A stretch of 64,000 nucleotides of DNA from positions 1 to 64,000 of the forward strand of contig JAZDNN010000024.1 in NCBI GenBank assembly GCA_043799675.1, given 5' to 3'. Source of the DNA: Candidatus Aenigmatarchaeota archaeon (lineage in GTDB: Archaea; Aenigmatarchaeota; Aenigmatarchaeia; Aenigmatarchaeales; JACQIB01). Made by a program: the position numbers and the translations under genes. Below, piece by piece: positions 48,857-61,853 of the stretch; within the stretch, counting starts at the first letter, position 1, and every line of letters begins with the position of its first letter. The notes beneath the pieces were generated by a model. That model was not told the DNA's origin. It searched no databases and saw only the letters and a program-made list of their open reading frames with translations.

Positions 48857-50482
48857 ATGGCGAGAGTGTTCCTGAGCCCGATATACGGCGACAAGAAAAC
48901 GCAGACGTTCGACTGCCTGACGCCGAATCCGGGTCCGGCAATGCTGGCAGCCTCGCTGCTGAAGGAAGGCCAAACCGTCCGCATCTACGACCCGAACCTT
49001 CCGCGCAACAGCATGAAGGGGCTTGAGACTTGCATAGACGGGTACGACCCCGACCTGCTTGCCCTCAGCGTCTACCAGAACGGCTTCTTCGACACGATAG
49101 ACCTGGCAAAGAGGGTCAAGAAAAAACACCCGGAAATCAAGATAGCCGCCGGCGGACCGCAGATAACCACATGGGACTCCTACGTCTACAACGTGACCGA
49201 TGCGTTCGACGTCCTCGGCATCGGGGAAGGCGAATACACGATAACCGGCCTGGCGGATTGGGCGGACGGCGGTAAGCTGGGCGAAGTTCCCGGAATAATC
49301 TACAAGGAAGGGGGAGAAATCAGAAGGAACCCGCCGAAGGTGTTCACGAACCTTGATGAGCTTCCCTCACCCGCATGGCAGCTGTTCGAGCTGGACAAGT
49401 ACCTGCCGATGTTCCCTCTCGAGCTCGGAAGGAGCTGCCCATGGGCCAAGTGCGCATTCTGCGTGCACGGAAAGCTCTCGGGAAAGAGGAGGGAACGCTC
49501 GCCAAAAATCTCTGTCGACGAAATGGAGAGAGACATAAAGGAATACGGAATGACCAACTTCAGGATAACCGACTCATCGCCCACACATCGCACGCTGGAA
49601 GGCTTTTCGGACGAGATTCTCAACAGAAAACTGAAGGAGAAGTATGACGTCAAGTGGTGCACCCTGGTAAGGGCCAAGGAAACGGATTTCCCTTTATCGA
49701 AGAAGATGCATGCGGCCGGATGCGTTGCCGAATTCATCGGTGCGGAGTCCGGGGACGACCAGATGCTCCGGCGCATGAACAAGGGCGAAACAGCTGACGA
49801 AAATCGCAAGGCAATCATGGCGGCAAAAGATGCCGGGGTGAAGGCGTCTGTCAGCACCATAATCGGCTTCCCGGGGGAGACCGAGGAGAGCATCCAGAAG
49901 ACGGTCAATCTCATTTACGAGACCATGCCGGACTCTGTCATGATATACCCGCTGGGCGTGATGCCCAGCACGCCGCTGTCGGGAAACCCCGAAAAATACG
50001 GAATCAAGCTGCATGAAGACTGGAAAGAAAAGTTCATGAAAACCAGTGTCAAGCTGATAGGCGGAAGGATGAAGGTGCCCCATTATTTCGATTACGCGGA
50101 CGGGAAGCCGAACACTTATTACGGCAAGAAAGTTGGCAAGCTCCTCATGAAGAACGCGAAGGCGCTGGTCCGGAAGGGGGTGCTCATCCAGGTACCGGAG
50201 CACCTGTTCCTGTTCGCGGAAATGCTGGAAAAGGAGAAGGCCGGAAGGCTCATCAACAATCCGGAGGCGGCATACGAATCCAAAATCAAGAATGCCTGGA
50301 CCACCGTGAAAAAGAAGGCCGTGAAAGCGATGGGCAAACCGGATTTCCCGTACGAGATGAAAATGATGAACGGCTTCCACAGCTGGCTGAGGAACGGGTA
50401 TGCCGAGGGCGTTGAAGAGATTGTCGGCATGATGTGGGAAAACAGCAGGGCCCGGGCCGGGGGCAAAGCGAAGGCATTATAA
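48857..50482 (+). CDS. B12-binding radical SAM protein
   Basis: AGGPQIT, GEGE, RSCPWAKCAFC, GAESG, IIGFPGET. Confidence 0.9.
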   Translation: MARVFLSPIYGDKKTQTFDCLTPNPGPAMLAASLLKEGQTVRIYDPNLPRNSMKGLETCIDGYDPDLLALSVYQNGFFDTIDLAKRVKKKHPEIKIAAGGPQITTWDSYVYNVTDAFDVLGIGEGEYTITGLADWADGGKLGEVPGIIYKEGGEIRRNPPKVFTNLDELPSPAWQLFELDKYLPMFPLELGRSCPWAKCAFCVHGKLSGKRRERSPKISVDEMERDIKEYGMTNFRITDSSPTHRTLEGFSDEILNRKLKEKYDVKWCTLVRAKETDFPLSKKMHAAGCVAEFIGAESGDDQMLRRMNKGETADENRKAIMAAKDAGVKASVSTIIGFPGETEESIQKTVNLIYETMPDSVMIYPLGVMPSTPLSGNPEKYGIKLHEDWKEKFMKTSVKLIGGRMKVPHYFDYADGKPNTYYGKKVGKLLMKNAKALVRKGVLIQVPEHLFLFAEMLEKEKAGRLINNPEAAYESKIKNAWTTVKKKAVKAMGKPDFPYEMKMMNGFHSWLRNGYAEGVEEIVGMMWENSRARAGGKAKAL

Positions 50483-50504
50483 GCGGCAGAATGCTTTTTC
50501 TCTG

Positions 50505-52160
50505 ATGTCGTGGCACGAGCTGAAGGCGGAAATTGCGAAGCATCTTGATGTGCCGGAGCAGGAAATAGAAGAGCCCGGCAAGGAAGGTTTCGGGGACTTT
50601 GCGTGGCCGGCATTCTCGAAAGCAAAGGCAGAAAAGAAGAACCCGGTCGAGATTGCAAAGGCACTTGCAGCCAAGCTCAAGGTGAAAGGGATAAAGGAAA
50701 TCAAGGCGGTCGGGCCGTACGTCAACTTCTTTGTCGACTGGGCTGCGCTTGGGAACGACATTCTGAAAGAGGCCGGATCCGGCTACGGAAAAGGGAAGGA
50801 AAAGAAAAGAGCGGTCATAGACCTGAGCAGCCCGAACCCCGCACACCCGTTCCACATGGGGACGGTGAGGAGCACGGTGATAGGCGAGGCGGTAGCAAGG
50901 ACACTTGAAAGCAGGGGATGGAAGGTCGACAGGCTGTGCTATGTCAACGACCTTGGAAAGCAGGCAGCCACTTTGCTTACAGGATACCTGCGCTATGCGA
51001 ACGGGCAGAAACCGGAAGGAAAGCCGGACGTCTGGCTCGGCAAGCTTTACATGAAAATCAACGAGGAGAGCGAACAGATAGAGGACGAGGTGTTCCAGAA
51101 CCTGCACAAGTACGAGCTCGGCGACAAGACGATGAGGGAGCTCGGAAGGAAGGTTTTCGGCTGGTGCCTTGAAGGGTTCGGGCAGAACTGGAAGCTGCTC
51201 GGGGTTAAGTTCGACCACATGTTCTGGGAATCCGACCTGGTCGGGGAGAGCAAACTGATAATCAAGGAGCTCGAGAAGAAGAAACTCACGTTCGAATCGG
51301 AGGGGGCGATGGTGCTGAATCTTGAGCCGCACGGCCTTCCGAACACCATAATCCAGCGGAAGGACGGCTCCGGTCTCTACCTCTCAAGGGACATACCGCA
51401 GGCGATATGGAGATGGAAGAACATGAAGCCCGACCTGAACCTGTACGTGGTCGCGGAGGGGCAGAGCACCCACTTCAACCAGCTGTTCAAGACGCTGGAG
51501 CTGCTCGGCCACGGGGAGCTGGCAAAGAGGAGCAGGCATCTCGCTTACGGGACGGTGCTACTTGAGGGGGAGAAGATGTCCTCAAGGAAGGGCATCACGG
51601 TCCTGTGGGACCAGCTGCTTGAAGAGGGGATAAAGCGGGCCAAAGAGGAGATAATCGGGCGCTGGCCCGACCTGAGCGAGAAGGAAAGGAATGAAAGGGC
51701 GGAACAGATAGCGGTCGGCGCAATCGTATATTACATCCTAAAATATTCACCGGAGAAGACGGTCAACTTCACCTGGAGCGAGGCAATGAGGTTCGAAGGG
51801 GACACCGGACCATACCTGCAATACACCCATGCAAGGGCCAAGAGCATACTCGCAAAGGAGAAGGCAAAATCGTTCGATGCCAAGCACCTCACGGATGAAA
51901 AGGAGAAAAACCTGCTGAGGATGCTTGCCCAGTGGCCTTCCGTGCTGAAAAAATCGGCAGCGGACCTCCAGCCTCATCAGGTCGCCGAATACCTCCACAG
52001 GCTTGCCGATTCATTCAACGAGTTCTACCAGACGGTAAGGGTGATACAGGCGGAAAAGAACGAGCAGAAGCAGGCGAGGCTGAAACTGGTCGAGGCGGTC
52101 TCCGAGGTCCTCAAGACGGCGATGACACTGCTGGCAGTTCCTTCACCTGACAAGATGTGA
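50505..52160 (+). CDS. argS: Arginine--tRNA ligase
   Basis: SSPNPAHPFHMG, KMSSRKG, GDTGPYLQYTHAR. Confidence 0.97.
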   Translation: MSWHELKAEIAKHLDVPEQEIEEPGKEGFGDFAWPAFSKAKAEKKNPVEIAKALAAKLKVKGIKEIKAVGPYVNFFVDWAALGNDILKEAGSGYGKGKEKKRAVIDLSSPNPAHPFHMGTVRSTVIGEAVARTLESRGWKVDRLCYVNDLGKQAATLLTGYLRYANGQKPEGKPDVWLGKLYMKINEESEQIEDEVFQNLHKYELGDKTMRELGRKVFGWCLEGFGQNWKLLGVKFDHMFWESDLVGESKLIIKELEKKKLTFESEGAMVLNLEPHGLPNTIIQRKDGSGLYLSRDIPQAIWRWKNMKPDLNLYVVAEGQSTHFNQLFKTLELLGHGELAKRSRHLAYGTVLLEGEKMSSRKGITVLWDQLLEEGIKRAKEEIIGRWPDLSEKERNERAEQIAVGAIVYYILKYSPEKTVNFTWSEAMRFEGDTGPYLQYTHARAKSILAKEKAKSFDAKHLTDEKEKNLLRMLAQWPSVLKKSAADLQPHQVAEYLHRLADSFNEFYQTVRVIQAEKNEQKQARLKLVEAVSEVLKTAMTLLAVPSPDKM

Positions 52161-55338: not shown

Positions 55339-55770
55339 ATGCCGAAGTTCAGGTTCATTCCCGAGATAGCGATAGCTGATGTAGCCTTCGAAGCGGAAGG
55401 TAAGGACATCAATGAGCTGTTTGTGAACTGCGCCCTTGCAACCGAGGAATCCATGGTCAACACAAAGAAGGTGAAGCCGAAGGTCAGCAAGACCATAAAG
55501 CTGGAAGCGGATGCGCTGGACAGACTGATGATTGACTGGCTGAACGAGGTGATTTACTACAAGGACGCGGAGGGGCTGCTGTTTTGTGAATTCATCGTCA
55601 AGGTATTGCAAAAGGGAAAGAACTGGACGCTTGAAGCCACGGCAAAGGGCGAAAAGAGGGACCCGAAGAAGCACGAGCTCAGGGCGGATGTGAAGGCGGC
55701 GACTTGGCACCTTTTTGAACTGAAGCAGGAAAAGGGCAAGTGGAAAGCGAGGATTGTAGAGGATATCTGA
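55339..55770 (+). CDS. Archease (RtcB activator)
   Basis: ADVAFEAEG, DWLNE, DVKAATWH, C-terminal DI. Confidence 0.92.
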   Translation: MPKFRFIPEIAIADVAFEAEGKDINELFVNCALATEESMVNTKKVKPKVSKTIKLEADALDRLMIDWLNEVIYYKDAEGLLFCEFIVKVLQKGKNWTLEATAKGEKRDPKKHELRADVKAATWHLFELKQEKGKWKARIVEDI

Positions 55771-56677: not shown

Positions 56678-57544
56678 TTAGCTGCGCTCTCCGGAAACCG
56701 TTCCGGTAACTGAAAACCCGTTACTGCCGCTATCCAAGTATGTCATCGTTACAGCGAGGGTATATGGATCTCCAACGTGGCCATTCACTCCCATGGTATT
56801 TGTGCCTGTCAGCCATACCCTTTCCAGAGGGAATAAGTTCATGGGCACGTTCATGGATGGTATTTGTAAACCGTTGACGCTTACAGACGTAATGCTGATG
56901 GTATCGCCAACCCTGTCCTCCACCCACAATTTTAACGTACCATTTGCAGCGTAATCGACATCCAGCACACCTATGTTCGTGAAGCCGCTGATTGTCTTGG
57001 GAGTGCAGGTCTGTGATTCCTGCGGTTTGCTTGTCGTTGTCCCGCAAGAATTCGTGTCAATGCATGTTCGCATCCGCGTTCCGCCGGCACCGCACGCGGA
57101 CCATGCATCGCATTGCCAGTTAGGAGTACATGTACATGGTTGTGTTTCCAAAGGCCTGTCGCTAAACAGATTGCATCTGTTTGCATCCGTGCATACCCTG
57201 CTCTGATTTCCCGAATTACTGCAATTGGTCCATGCACTGCACTGCCAGTCAGGCACGCAGGGTGGCGTGCAGAACTGGGTTTCAACAGGCTTGTTATAAT
57301 TCACGCTGCAGGAATTCGCATCTATGCATGTCCTTGTCTGCGTTCCTGAAGCGGAGCATGCATTCCACGCCCCGCACTGCCAATCAGGCGTGCATACTGG
57401 GGGCATCAGAGGCCCACTTGGCTTAATCAGGGATTGCACAATATACAACGATGCAAGCGCAACGATTATTACAGCCAGAACCAAGATAATGACGTTTTTC
57501 TTTTCGGATTTAGGCACACCTATTTTCTTTTCTGACTTAGGCAC
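56678..57544 (-). CDS. Tandem paralog of 55780-56613 with three TSP-like repeats
   Basis: Same architecture; upstream region also duplicated (CGCTTAATAAAGA...TGGCTTTGC-like). Confidence 0.8.
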   Translation of the reverse strand: MPKSEKKIGVPKSEKKNVIILVLAVIIVALASLYIVQSLIKPSGPLMPPVCTPDWQCGAWNACSASGTQTRTCIDANSCSVNYNKPVETQFCTPPCVPDWQCSAWTNCSNSGNQSRVCTDANRCNLFSDRPLETQPCTCTPNWQCDAWSACGAGGTRMRTCIDTNSCGTTTSKPQESQTCTPKTISGFTNIGVLDVDYAANGTLKLWVEDRVGDTISITSVSVNGLQIPSMNVPMNLFPLERVWLTGTNTMGVNGHVGDPYTLAVTMTYLDSGSNGFSVTGTVSGERS

Positions 57545-57627
57545 ACCAAAAATGACTATTACCGCTTAATAAAGATGAATTTTGGCTTTGCTGCTTGATT
57601 TATTAGCGGCGCAAACGATTAGCTGGC

Positions 57628-59212
57628 ATGGAGCAGGAACCTGAAAAGCAGACAGGCAGTCTGCCGAAGGAAATCAAGAAAATCAGCGAGGTCGTCTGGG
57701 AACTGCCCACCAGCTACAAGAAAGGCATGCGCGTGCCGGCAAGAATATATGCGACCAAGAAGCTGCTCGATGCGATGGACGCGGGAGTGTTCGAGCAGGT
57801 CACCAACGTCGCGACCCTGCCGGGAATCGTCAAGCATGCGTTCTGTATGCCGGATGGGCACTGGGGTATGGGTCAAGTCGCGGCTTGATTCACTCAAATA
57901 TGGGTTCCCAATCGGCGGCGTGGCTGCATTCGACCCGAAGGTCGGCGTGATCAGCCCGGGCGGCATCGGGTTCGACATCAACTGCGGCATGAGGTTCGTC
58001 ACTACCAACCTTACTGTCAAGGACGTCAAACCCAAGCTGAAAGAACTGGTGGATATCCTGTTCAGGACGGTTCCCGCGGGCGTGGGCGGGGAAGGGTTTG
58101 TAAAATTAAGCCGCAGCCAATTCGACGAAATAATGGTCCAAGGGGCCAATTGGGTCATCGAGCACGGCTACGGTTGGAAAGAGGACACGGAAAGAATAGA
58201 GGAGTACGGCTGCATCAAAGGTGCTGATCCGTCAAAGGTCAGCGACAAGGCAAGGACCAGAGGCATCACGCAGATGGGGACGCTCGGCTCAGGGAACCAT
58301 TACCTGGAAATCCAGACTGCCGAGAAAATTTTCCTTCCCGAAGTCGCAGAGGCATTCGGCGTGAACGAACAGGGGCAGATAGGGGTGATGGTGCACTGCG
58401 GCTCGAGGGGGTTCGGCCACCAAATCGGAACGGATTATCTCAGGATATTCGACATGGCAATGAAGAAGTACAACATCACGGTGCCTGACAGGGAGCTTGC
58501 CTGTGCGCCTTTTGCGAGCCAGGAAGGACAGGATTATTATCACGCGATGGCCTGCGCGGCAAACATGGCTTTTGCCAACAGGCAGGTGATTTTGCACAGG
58601 ATACGCGAGGCTTTTGCAAAGGTGTTCAGGAAATCCCCCGAAGACATGGAAATGCACCTGGTGTACGATGTCGCGCACAACGTGGCCAAGGTGGAGAAAC
58701 ACCTGGTCGACGGTCATGAAAAGGAACTGGTGATGCACCGGAAGGGGAGCACGCGCTGCTTCGGTCCGGGTAGGCCGGAGATTCCTGAAGCTTACCGCAA
58801 GGTCGGCCAGCCGGTGATTGTGGGCGGCAGCATGGAAACGGGCAGCTTTTTGTGCGTGGGCACGGACAAGGCTCTGACAGAAACATGGGGAAGCACCATG
58901 CACGGCGCGGGCAGAACCATGAGCAGGACTTCAGCGAGGAACCAGGGCTCGGGCTTGGCGTTGCAGAAGAAGATGGCCAAGGAAGGGATACTGGTGGAAG
59001 CCACGAGCATGAGCGGGCTTGCAGAGGAAGCGGGCTTTGCCTACAAGGACCTGAACGAAGTGGTCGAGACCATGGAAATCGCGGGCGTGAGCAGGAAGGT
59101 CGTTCTGCTGAGGCCTTTGGGTAATATTAAAGGCACCGCCCGGGCCTCATACAGCCTTTTAGCTTTCCCCATACTTGTCATGGTCTTGGCCTTGATTTCG
59201 TCCCTTATCTGA
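57628..59212 (+). CDS. rtcB: RtcB tRNA-splicing ligase, join(57628..57867,57899..59212), interrupted by a putative 31-nt BHB intron
   Basis: MPDGHWG|YGFPIGG after joining; GFDINCG, GTLGSGNHYLE, HCGSRG, HRKG, HGAGR. Confidence 0.9.
57868..57898 (+). other. Putative BHB mRNA intron in rtcB
   Basis: Central helix TGGG/CTCA, bulges GT^A and AA^T, 10-bp intron hairpin; removal restores the frame. Confidence 0.8.
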
Positions 59213-61579: not shown

Positions 61580-61853
61580 CTCGTCCGTGTTCCAATCCGA
61601 CCTGACGGAAGGGTTTCGGTAGCCTCTCCACCGACATGACACCGCGGCTTCAATCTTCGGGAACCTACCAACTGAAACCGCTGAATTTAATGGCACAAGC
61701 ATTCGGACGGCATGAAATGCCATCGCACCATCTTGCGCTCTATGGAAAGGCGTATAGCGCGGGCCTTTGCCGGGAGAATGAAATACCCGCCCCCCGATTG
61801 GGAAGGAAAGAACTCTGTCATGCAAAAATTGAGGGACGAAACGATTTATGCGC

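Follow-up and report, generated by a model that had tools for sequence, protein, structure and literature searches.

Why is the gene for the RNA ligase RtcB read in two frames in this archaeal genome, and how might an intact protein still be made from it? The stretch analyzed here, 64,000 nt long and hereafter called the window, covers positions 1 to 64,000 of contig JAZDNN010000024.1 (assembly GCA_043799675.1, Candidatus Aenigmatarchaeota archaeon). Its rtcB gene, present as one copy in the assembly (G000 in our set; metagenome-type, 748,753 nt in 45 contigs, 83% complete), is interrupted by 31 bases at 57868-57898. We consider it very likely that these bases are a tRNA-type intron of the bulge-helix-bulge (BHB) kind, which is by far the best reading of the sequence and comparative evidence. 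The genome, at ~749 kb, is archaeal and of DPANN size, and its nearest named relatives, among named contigs fetched with the protein, are Woesearchaeota and Nanoarchaeota.

The gene is spread over two open reading frames (ORFs). The first, 57628-57888, encodes 86 aa and ends in MPDGHWGMGQVAA followed by the stop; the second, 57749-59212, lies in the +1 frame, contains YGFPIGGVAAFDP, and reads as rtcB from 57899 on. The first piece matches the start of the Pfam RtcB profile and the second matches the remainder with an E value of 4e-157 (profile positions are given in Table 1). Since the two pieces cover the profile fully, the break represents a clean insertion, and the gene is complete apart from it. 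In an alignment with Pyrococcus horikoshii RtcB (Pho), whose numbering we use, it falls between Gly69 and Tyr70, inside the conserved motif MPDGHWG/YGFPIGG (the slash marks the break) and 26 residues ahead of Asp95 and Cys98. Both of these residues are metal ligands of RtcB (PMC10630183). The insert shifts the frame by +1 and brings a TGA into the exon 1 frame at 57886-57888. Exon 2 is open over 437 codons and shares 76% identity with RtcB of the nearest relative, and no further defect appears across the 517 rtcB codons. A first-pass annotation of the window had likewise described an rtcB split within a conserved motif, with an unspliced message that stops after 86 codons; the ORFs and the profile coverage agree with the former statement, and the length of the first ORF agrees with the latter.

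In BHB motifs, two bulges lie on opposite strands, and each is cut after its second base; we placed the cut sites on both sides by this canonical rule. Around the insert, exon bases UGGG pair with intron bases CUCA to form a central helix of 4 bp, including one G.U, with two 3-nt bulges on opposite strands. The 5' bulge is closed by a 10-bp inner helix that includes three G.U pairs and has the loop CGCG; the minimum free energy (MFE) fold contains this hairpin as well. The canonical cuts take out exactly 31 nt and yield the join MPDGHWGYGFPIGGVAAFDP, the predicted exon junction 57867/57899 reading CACTGGGGT on its left and TATGGGTTC on its right. Excision restores H-W-G-Y-G-F, and the spliced product reads MPDGHWGYGFPIGG. 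The layout of helix, bulges, and hairpin drawn at first pass is exact under this geometry, and a scripted check confirmed the 31-nt removal and the restored motif.

To gauge how often such a motif arises by chance, we scanned the whole assembly on both strands for intron lengths of 14-120. Among ~1.6e8 (cut, cut) pairs, 137 combine a 4/4 central helix with at least 10 bp of inner helix. The chance of such a motif is ~9e-7 per cut pair, an upper bound because real introns are counted in, and just one pair restores the protein. Group I and group II introns are of little help in explaining the insert, as 31 nt is far too small for either, and an Rfam scan of the window returned only tRNA and RT-16 at gathering score, with no match to a group I or II intron. 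A genome-wide search for coding-sequence BHB introns based on structure and open frames was too noisy (25,343 loose motifs, 972 ORF-joining candidates), and its ORF-joining filter missed the true rtcB phase; we used only the base rate. Its most striking match in the window, 50474-50513, was discarded as a 22-nt spacer between the separate genes 48857-50482 and 50505-52160.

We then looked at the same site in related genomes. In the sample of the order, 36 of 42 genomes have an N-terminal RtcB match, and seven (G000, G005, G006, G016, G021, G023, and G024) carry an insert of 28-33 nt at the same place, with the rtcB matches confined to one contig in each. Across the class, the N-terminal RtcB region is found in 323 of 371 genomes. 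A pattern that requires 15-45 additional bases in the stretch from the His codon to GFPIG matches 45 of the 371 (35 of 170 genera), compared with five, by our own count, for the reversed-pattern control. These inserts are 16-36 nt long, and in every one of the 45, PD.H.GYG can be restored by a canonical, in-frame BHB cut pair; in 28, this pair outranks every other pair of the region in structure. Counted from the end of the His codon, the cut follows after 0 bases in 19 genomes, after 7 in 14, and after 9 in 11; an offset of 6 is seen in this window only. Anchored on these cuts, central-helix positions H1-H4 are paired in 21 (plus 23 with G.A), 44, 44, and 39 of the 45 genomes and inner-helix positions I1-I5 in 45, 44, 44, 41, and 36, compared with mostly 5-30 when the partner is moved by 1-3 bases. 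Positions H2-H4 and I1-I4 each use four to six pair types, that is, the helices covary. If left unspliced, 43 of the 45 genes would be broken. After splicing in silico, 13 stay open for 409-437 codons and reach the usual ...KG end, another 13 meet a new break 23-33 codons downstream, and in 19 the examined DNA ends first.

A second set, consisting of 80 named contigs fetched with the protein, gave a similar picture. The site is readable in 65, of which 15 have the insert; an in-frame BHB is present in all 15 and ranks first in nine. In two of them, the cut falls at a position not seen in the class set, 2 bases past the His codon, bringing the known positions to five within 10 nt (0, 2, 6, 7, and 9 bases after the His codon). 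Twelve of the 15 are labeled Woesearchaeota, Nanoarchaeota, or Nanoarchaeia, and the others are labeled Aenigmatarchaeota, uncultured archaeon, and uncultured Methanosarcinales. The insert was seen in none of the readable contigs labeled Methanoperedens, Kryptonia, Scalindua, or Thaumarchaeota.

Independent sequence data also carry the insert. We aligned Logan contigs of four public runs (2 RNA and 2 DNA) to positions 57600-58400. Record 13 of DNA run X2 spans 57780-57938 ungapped and has the 31 nt letter for letter, with 0 changes in the intron; its seven differences in exon 1 are all synonymous according to a manual codon check. Record 1 of DNA run X1 (395 nt), a contig from a relative, shows 32 differences and 5 gaps; its exons are conserved, and 10 substitutions and 4 indels map to the intron or its edges. 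By hand reading, its intron still forms a hairpin, with the cut register one base downstream. Together, these contigs indicate that the insert is present in independent data and evolves faster than the exons, and that the gene is under purifying selection. Among the RNA contigs, record 10 of run X12 has 28 letters fewer across the site and is just ~86% alike; it may represent an intronless relative or spliced RNA.

The proposal of a BHB mRNA intron, made at first pass, is thus supported by the geometry, by the independent contig, which speaks to the concern about an assembly error, by same-site inserts with covarying helices in the orthologs of both sets, and by the endonuclease and archease genes described below. 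Several observations weigh against it. First, the outer helix h is essentially absent, with a C.A mismatch followed by just A-U and C-G; the motif therefore has the relaxed HBh' form and not the strict hBHBh' form, and being noncanonical, it needs an endonuclease of broad specificity. Second, the BHB fold reaches -12.6 kcal/mol versus -17.5 kcal/mol for the MFE, so that the central helix lies outside the thermodynamic optimum, and its pairs make up 6-12% of the ensemble. Regional folding z-scores are unremarkable (-0.71 and -1.62). Given that the region folds no better than shuffles and that the BHB fold is suboptimal, we did not use folding energy as evidence. Third, in 17 of the 45 class genomes, a simple contiguous-pair score ranks some other cut pair above the in-frame one, and outer positions O1-O3 are paired in 16, 25, and 1 of 45. 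The pair counts are to be read with the caveat that the in-frame register was picked partly by structure score, which favors them, and that the genomes are related. In the genus of G016, G021, and G024, the central helix of the in-frame register is weak (GGGG/ACCA, two G-C and two G.A); G219 and G299, which use this register too, form 3 and 4 Watson-Crick pairs in it. Fourth, a search of public runs found none with the organism (top word share, 0.17), and the RNA contigs are relatives' only and uninformative, with no splice junction for this organism. Finally, the assembly is 83% complete, which leaves room for a second rtcB or another ligase.

Table 1. Features of the rtcB locus and its splicing context (window positions unless stated otherwise; a slash in a bulge marks the predicted cut)
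Feature	Position	Strand	Basis or remark
EndA paralogues, tandem, ORFs overlapping ~60 nt	G000 C10:51469-52295 (L071 1474-2552)	-	
Archease (RtcB activation factor)	55372..55767	+	PF01951, 133.7 bits; 1.9 kb upstream of rtcB
ORF, 288 aa, between archease and rtcB	56678-57544	-	no Pfam match
rtcB exon 1, 80 codons, end ..MPDGHWG	57628..57867	+	Pfam RtcB positions 1-27
Central helix, 5' strand UGGG, exon bases	57862..57865	+	4/4 pairs with 57893-57896
5' bulge GU/A, predicted cut after 57867	57866..57868	+	canonical BHB rule
Predicted BHB (HBh'-type) intron, 31 nt	57868..57898	+	identical in independent DNA contig (X2 record 13)
Inner helix h', arms 57869-57878/57883-57892, loop 57879-57882	57869..57892	+	pair probabilities 0.67-0.94
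Central helix, 3' strand CUCA, intron bases	57893..57896	+	pairs with 57862-57865
3' bulge AA/U, predicted cut after 57898	57897..57899	+	canonical BHB rule
rtcB exon 2, YGFPIGG to stop	57899..59212	+	Pfam RtcB positions 25-426
LAGLIDADG-type ORF, 411 aa	59041-60276	-	Pfam LAGLIDADG_3, weak HTH_58
RT-16 RNA (Rfam)	61614-61790	-	57.2 bits, gathering score

Which enzymes would process such a message? The assembly encodes two adjacent EndA paralogues of 170 and ~189 aa, both full-length, each with an N-terminal and a catalytic domain. The gene content suggests that they may form a broad-specificity heterotetramer accepting relaxed motifs, a coupling described for endonucleases of broad specificity (PMC5829648). 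ARAGORN run with intron search detects 10 tRNA genes in the assembly, one of them in the window, and calls an intron in nine; most tRNA genes are presumably too disrupted for recognition. This outcome is as expected if the tRNA genes are heavily disrupted and the ligase is strongly needed, and it is in keeping with the earlier description of the genome as intron rich.

Among the alternatives, the one that survives best keeps the intron and the EndA cut and assigns the sealing of the exons to a ligase other than RtcB, in which case there would be no self-dependence. We regard it as improbable. It is well established that archaea use RtcB together with archease to ligate endonuclease products (PMC10630183), and an archease gene lies upstream of rtcB. 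The sole match to the RNA-ligase family PF09414 in the assembly is a 566-aa ATP-dependent DNA ligase, although this was the one alternative family searched, and the incompleteness of the assembly speaks for this alternative. An intact second rtcB elsewhere, which the first-pass annotation had named, together with a lack of spliced transcripts, as a finding that would speak against its view, did not turn up in the 83% complete assembly, which yielded one rtcB.

A less probable alternative still is that rtcB is a pseudogene or lost its function recently through a 31-bp insertion, such as that of a small mobile element that duplicated its target site. The insert does break the frame and add a stop, and a 7-nt direct repeat, TATGGGT, occurs at 57867-57873 and 57899-57905. 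Yet removal of 32 nt, as a duplication of that repeat would imply, leaves the frame broken, whereas excision of 31 nt by BHB geometry restores it, and blastn-short found no other copy of the intron in the genome. Moreover, a disabled gene is hard to reconcile with 517 codons free of other defects, with a single-copy rtcB in a genome where the few detectable tRNA genes mostly carry introns, with seven of seven synonymous exon changes in an independent population that keeps the insert, and with inserts of the same kind in 45 of 371 genomes whose genes are otherwise intact.

Could the ribosome skip the insert instead? Translational bypassing is known from phage T4 gene 60 and from the yeast-mitochondrial "byp" elements, and the combination of a short insert, a hairpin, and an early stop superficially resembles gene 60. 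However, none of the 45 inserts has a take-off codon identical to the one that precedes exon 2, and the covarying helices are those of a BHB, exon-intron pairs included. A programmed +1 frameshift, in turn, would leave ~10 foreign residues inside an invariant motif. We give these ribosomal explanations very little weight, and marginally less to a split gene, in which the 86-aa piece and a C-terminal piece would assemble. Split genes do occur in DPANN archaea, for example, in Nanoarchaeum, but no start codon in the exon 2 frame exists between 57749 and 57899, so a second piece would open with 50 out-of-frame residues. The break also falls in the middle of an invariant motif, and relatives carry in-frame inserts, 18-36 nt long, that occupy four other positions within 10 nt, a pattern that fits excision from RNA rather than separate genes. 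As for an assembly or sequencing artifact, for which a metagenome-type assembly in 45 contigs might give cause, the identical, ungapped insert of X2 record 13 across 57780-57938, the diverged version in X1 record 1, and the recurrence of the feature in dozens of independent assemblies leave it a negligible probability.

If the insert is a BHB intron, the expression of rtcB would proceed as follows. The splicing endonuclease, formed by the two EndA paralogues with broad specificity, would cut the relaxed HBh' motif and leave exon halves with a 2',3'-cyclic phosphate and a 5'-OH, which preexisting RtcB with archease would seal; the excised intron would be released as a small circle. The unspliced rtcB mRNA would give just the 86-residue fragment, so that new RtcB would be made only where RtcB is already present. 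The result would be a self-dependent positive loop, inherited through the protein at cell division. Splicing, the cut sites, the circular intron, and the "RtcB needs RtcB" loop are all predictions, and self-ligation of its own message holds only if RtcB is the sole ligase. Such a loop may be used for regulation, or the intron may be a tolerated, possibly mobile or selfish insert whose imprecise loss is lethal.

How does this intron compare with known cases? Watanabe in 2002 reportedly described a BHB intron in the cbf5 pre-mRNA of Crenarchaeota. Its splicing was shown experimentally (Yokobori 2009, PMC2738675), and according to PMC7714728, it was the only mRNA intron reported beyond tRNA and rRNA as of 2020; so far as the literature we found goes, cbf5 is the only published archaeal coding sequence with a BHB intron. 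We found no report of an rtcB intron in the full-text literature, a search that did not cover most subscription journals. The two cases share a short BHB intron in an archaeal coding frame, predicted here to be removed by the tRNA-splicing endonuclease and ligase, and a patchy distribution with gain and loss; lineages with the cbf5 intron have hetero-oligomeric or broad-specificity endonucleases, a type predicted for the present genome as well. In contrast to cbf5, the host gene here is rtcB, which encodes the pathway's own ligase, and the lineage is DPANN (Woesearchaeota/Nanoarchaeota-like) rather than crenarchaeal. The rtcB introns are also 16-36 nt long, of relaxed HBh' form, and located at five positions within 10 nt plus a second hot spot (see below), and they are known from DNA sequence, whereas cbf5 splicing is experimental (PMC2738675).

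Three other systems are instructive. HVO_1309 of Haloferax volcanii has a BHB intron in the 5' untranslated region of its mRNA, shown in vivo and in vitro (PMC7714728); like the predicted rtcB intron, it shows the archaeal splicing endonuclease acting on an mRNA rather than on tRNA or rRNA, but it lies in the untranslated leader and interrupts no reading frame. In XBP1 and HAC1 mRNA, IRE1 cuts and RtcB or Trl1 ligates (PMC10630183, PMC4687415). XBP1 resembles the present case, as predicted, in having a short, frame-shifting mRNA intron (26 nt in humans) that is removed without a spliceosome and sealed by RtcB, the switch of frame leading to a functional protein. It differs in that IRE1 acts on twin stem-loops instead of EndA on a BHB, in that the target is a transcription factor, and in that splicing belongs to a regulated stress response. 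Relaxed BHB tRNA introns (HBh' and hBH) occur in archaea with (alpha-beta)2, epsilon2, or loop-bearing EndA, and DPANN genomes have strongly disrupted tRNA genes (PMC5829648). These introns share with the one in rtcB a well-formed 5' bulge, H, and h' without an outer helix, as well as the predicted enzymes; the rtcB substrate, in contrast, is an mRNA coding region whose exon-side half is codon constrained.

The rtcB gene of relatives has a second intron site, between the Asp95 and Ile96 codons (GFD/INCG), and it is here that the 13 genes mentioned above break again after removal of the first insert. A GGIGFD...INCG insert pattern matches 8 of 371 genomes (G006 [L020 635-669], G114, G127, G152, G191, G208, G211, and G053), with 0 in the control, and five of the eight also carry the first insert. 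The second insert of G006 forms a perfect BHB (UUCG/CGAA) and restores GFD/INCG. In G003 and G004, an in-frame insertion of ~1.5 kb, the size of an intein, occupies the motif of this second hot spot.

Inteins and introns bearing homing endonucleases sit at conserved catalytic motifs. The rtcB inserts resemble them in clustering in invariant active-site motifs, and a LAGLIDADG gene adjoins rtcB. They differ in that the 31-nt insert encodes nothing, in that its predicted removal takes place at the RNA level, and in that the presence of the endonuclease gene does not track with the intron within the order. Homologues of the LAGLIDADG protein are found in 5 of the 42 order genomes, in six places, and adjoin the rtcB 3' end in G000 and G034. 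A collaborative homing model, in which the LAGLIDADG gene would act on the site in its intronless state and spread together with the intron, is unsupported at this depth: G034 lacks the site 1 insert, and the other six insert-bearing genomes of the order have no homologue at E<=1e-5.

A broader scenario, which we put forward tentatively and consider rather unlikely, is that rtcB mini-introns form an autocatalytic, self-referential circuit across Woesearchaeota-like DPANN that reports free splicing capacity, the introns being mobile BHB elements whose homing sites are the two catalytic motifs that vary least. These motifs would be the one around Gly69/Tyr70 and the one at Asp95-Cys98, the latter shared with the intein-sized insertions. 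If this were true, circuit and homing introns together would make the tRNA-splicing machinery impossible to lose.

What sets the locus apart is that the interrupted gene encodes the ligase that completes the same kind of splicing. The interruption occurs in about one in seven of the rtcB-bearing genomes of the class, often with a second intron 26 codons downstream. If these messages are spliced as predicted, the production of an RNA-processing enzyme would require that very enzyme, which would amount to a natural circuit, and archaeal mRNA splicing would be common in ultrasmall archaea rather than a curiosity. Splicing would also explain why annotation pipelines are prone to call rtcB broken or missing, which distorts metabolic and completeness inferences, and the introns would offer compact natural substrates of 16-36 nt for studies of relaxed BHB recognition and intron mobility.

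Some further observations concern the surroundings of rtcB. The LAGLIDADG ORF is convergent with the gene and overlaps its last ~170 nt (59041-59212), of which ~95 nt are the conserved coding end; the last ~30 residues of the ORF are thus antisense to conserved rtcB sequence. A homologue with 40% identity lies in the same convergent overlap at the rtcB gene of G034, a genome without the intron; G119 has a weaker homologue downstream of its rtcB. The conserved end of RtcB, ..LGNIKG, is reached at 59134 and is followed by a hydrophobic tail of 25 codons (59135-59209) without counterpart in the relatives. The sequence past KG up to the stop (59135-59212) is TARASYSLLAFPILVMVLALISSLI, mostly hydrophobic; nearly all relatives stop after KG, and G053 (L014) likewise reads on beyond it. 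The tail could serve as a membrane anchor, have arisen as a by-product when the neighboring insertion occurred, or be untranslated.

The ORF between archease and rtcB encodes a hydrophobic segment at the N terminus and three copies of a cysteine-rich repeat (TP.WQC.AW..C...G.Q.R.C.D.N.C), and an RT-16 RNA lies on the far side of the LAGLIDADG gene (Table 1). Lastly, record 9 of RNA run X12, a 156-nt metatranscriptome contig from a relative, aligns to window positions 57669-57800 and 57841-57864 in permuted order, joining letters like those of the exon 1 end (...CACTGG) to 57669. This junction could stem from a circularized exon 1 piece, from template switching, or from another gene order in the relative.

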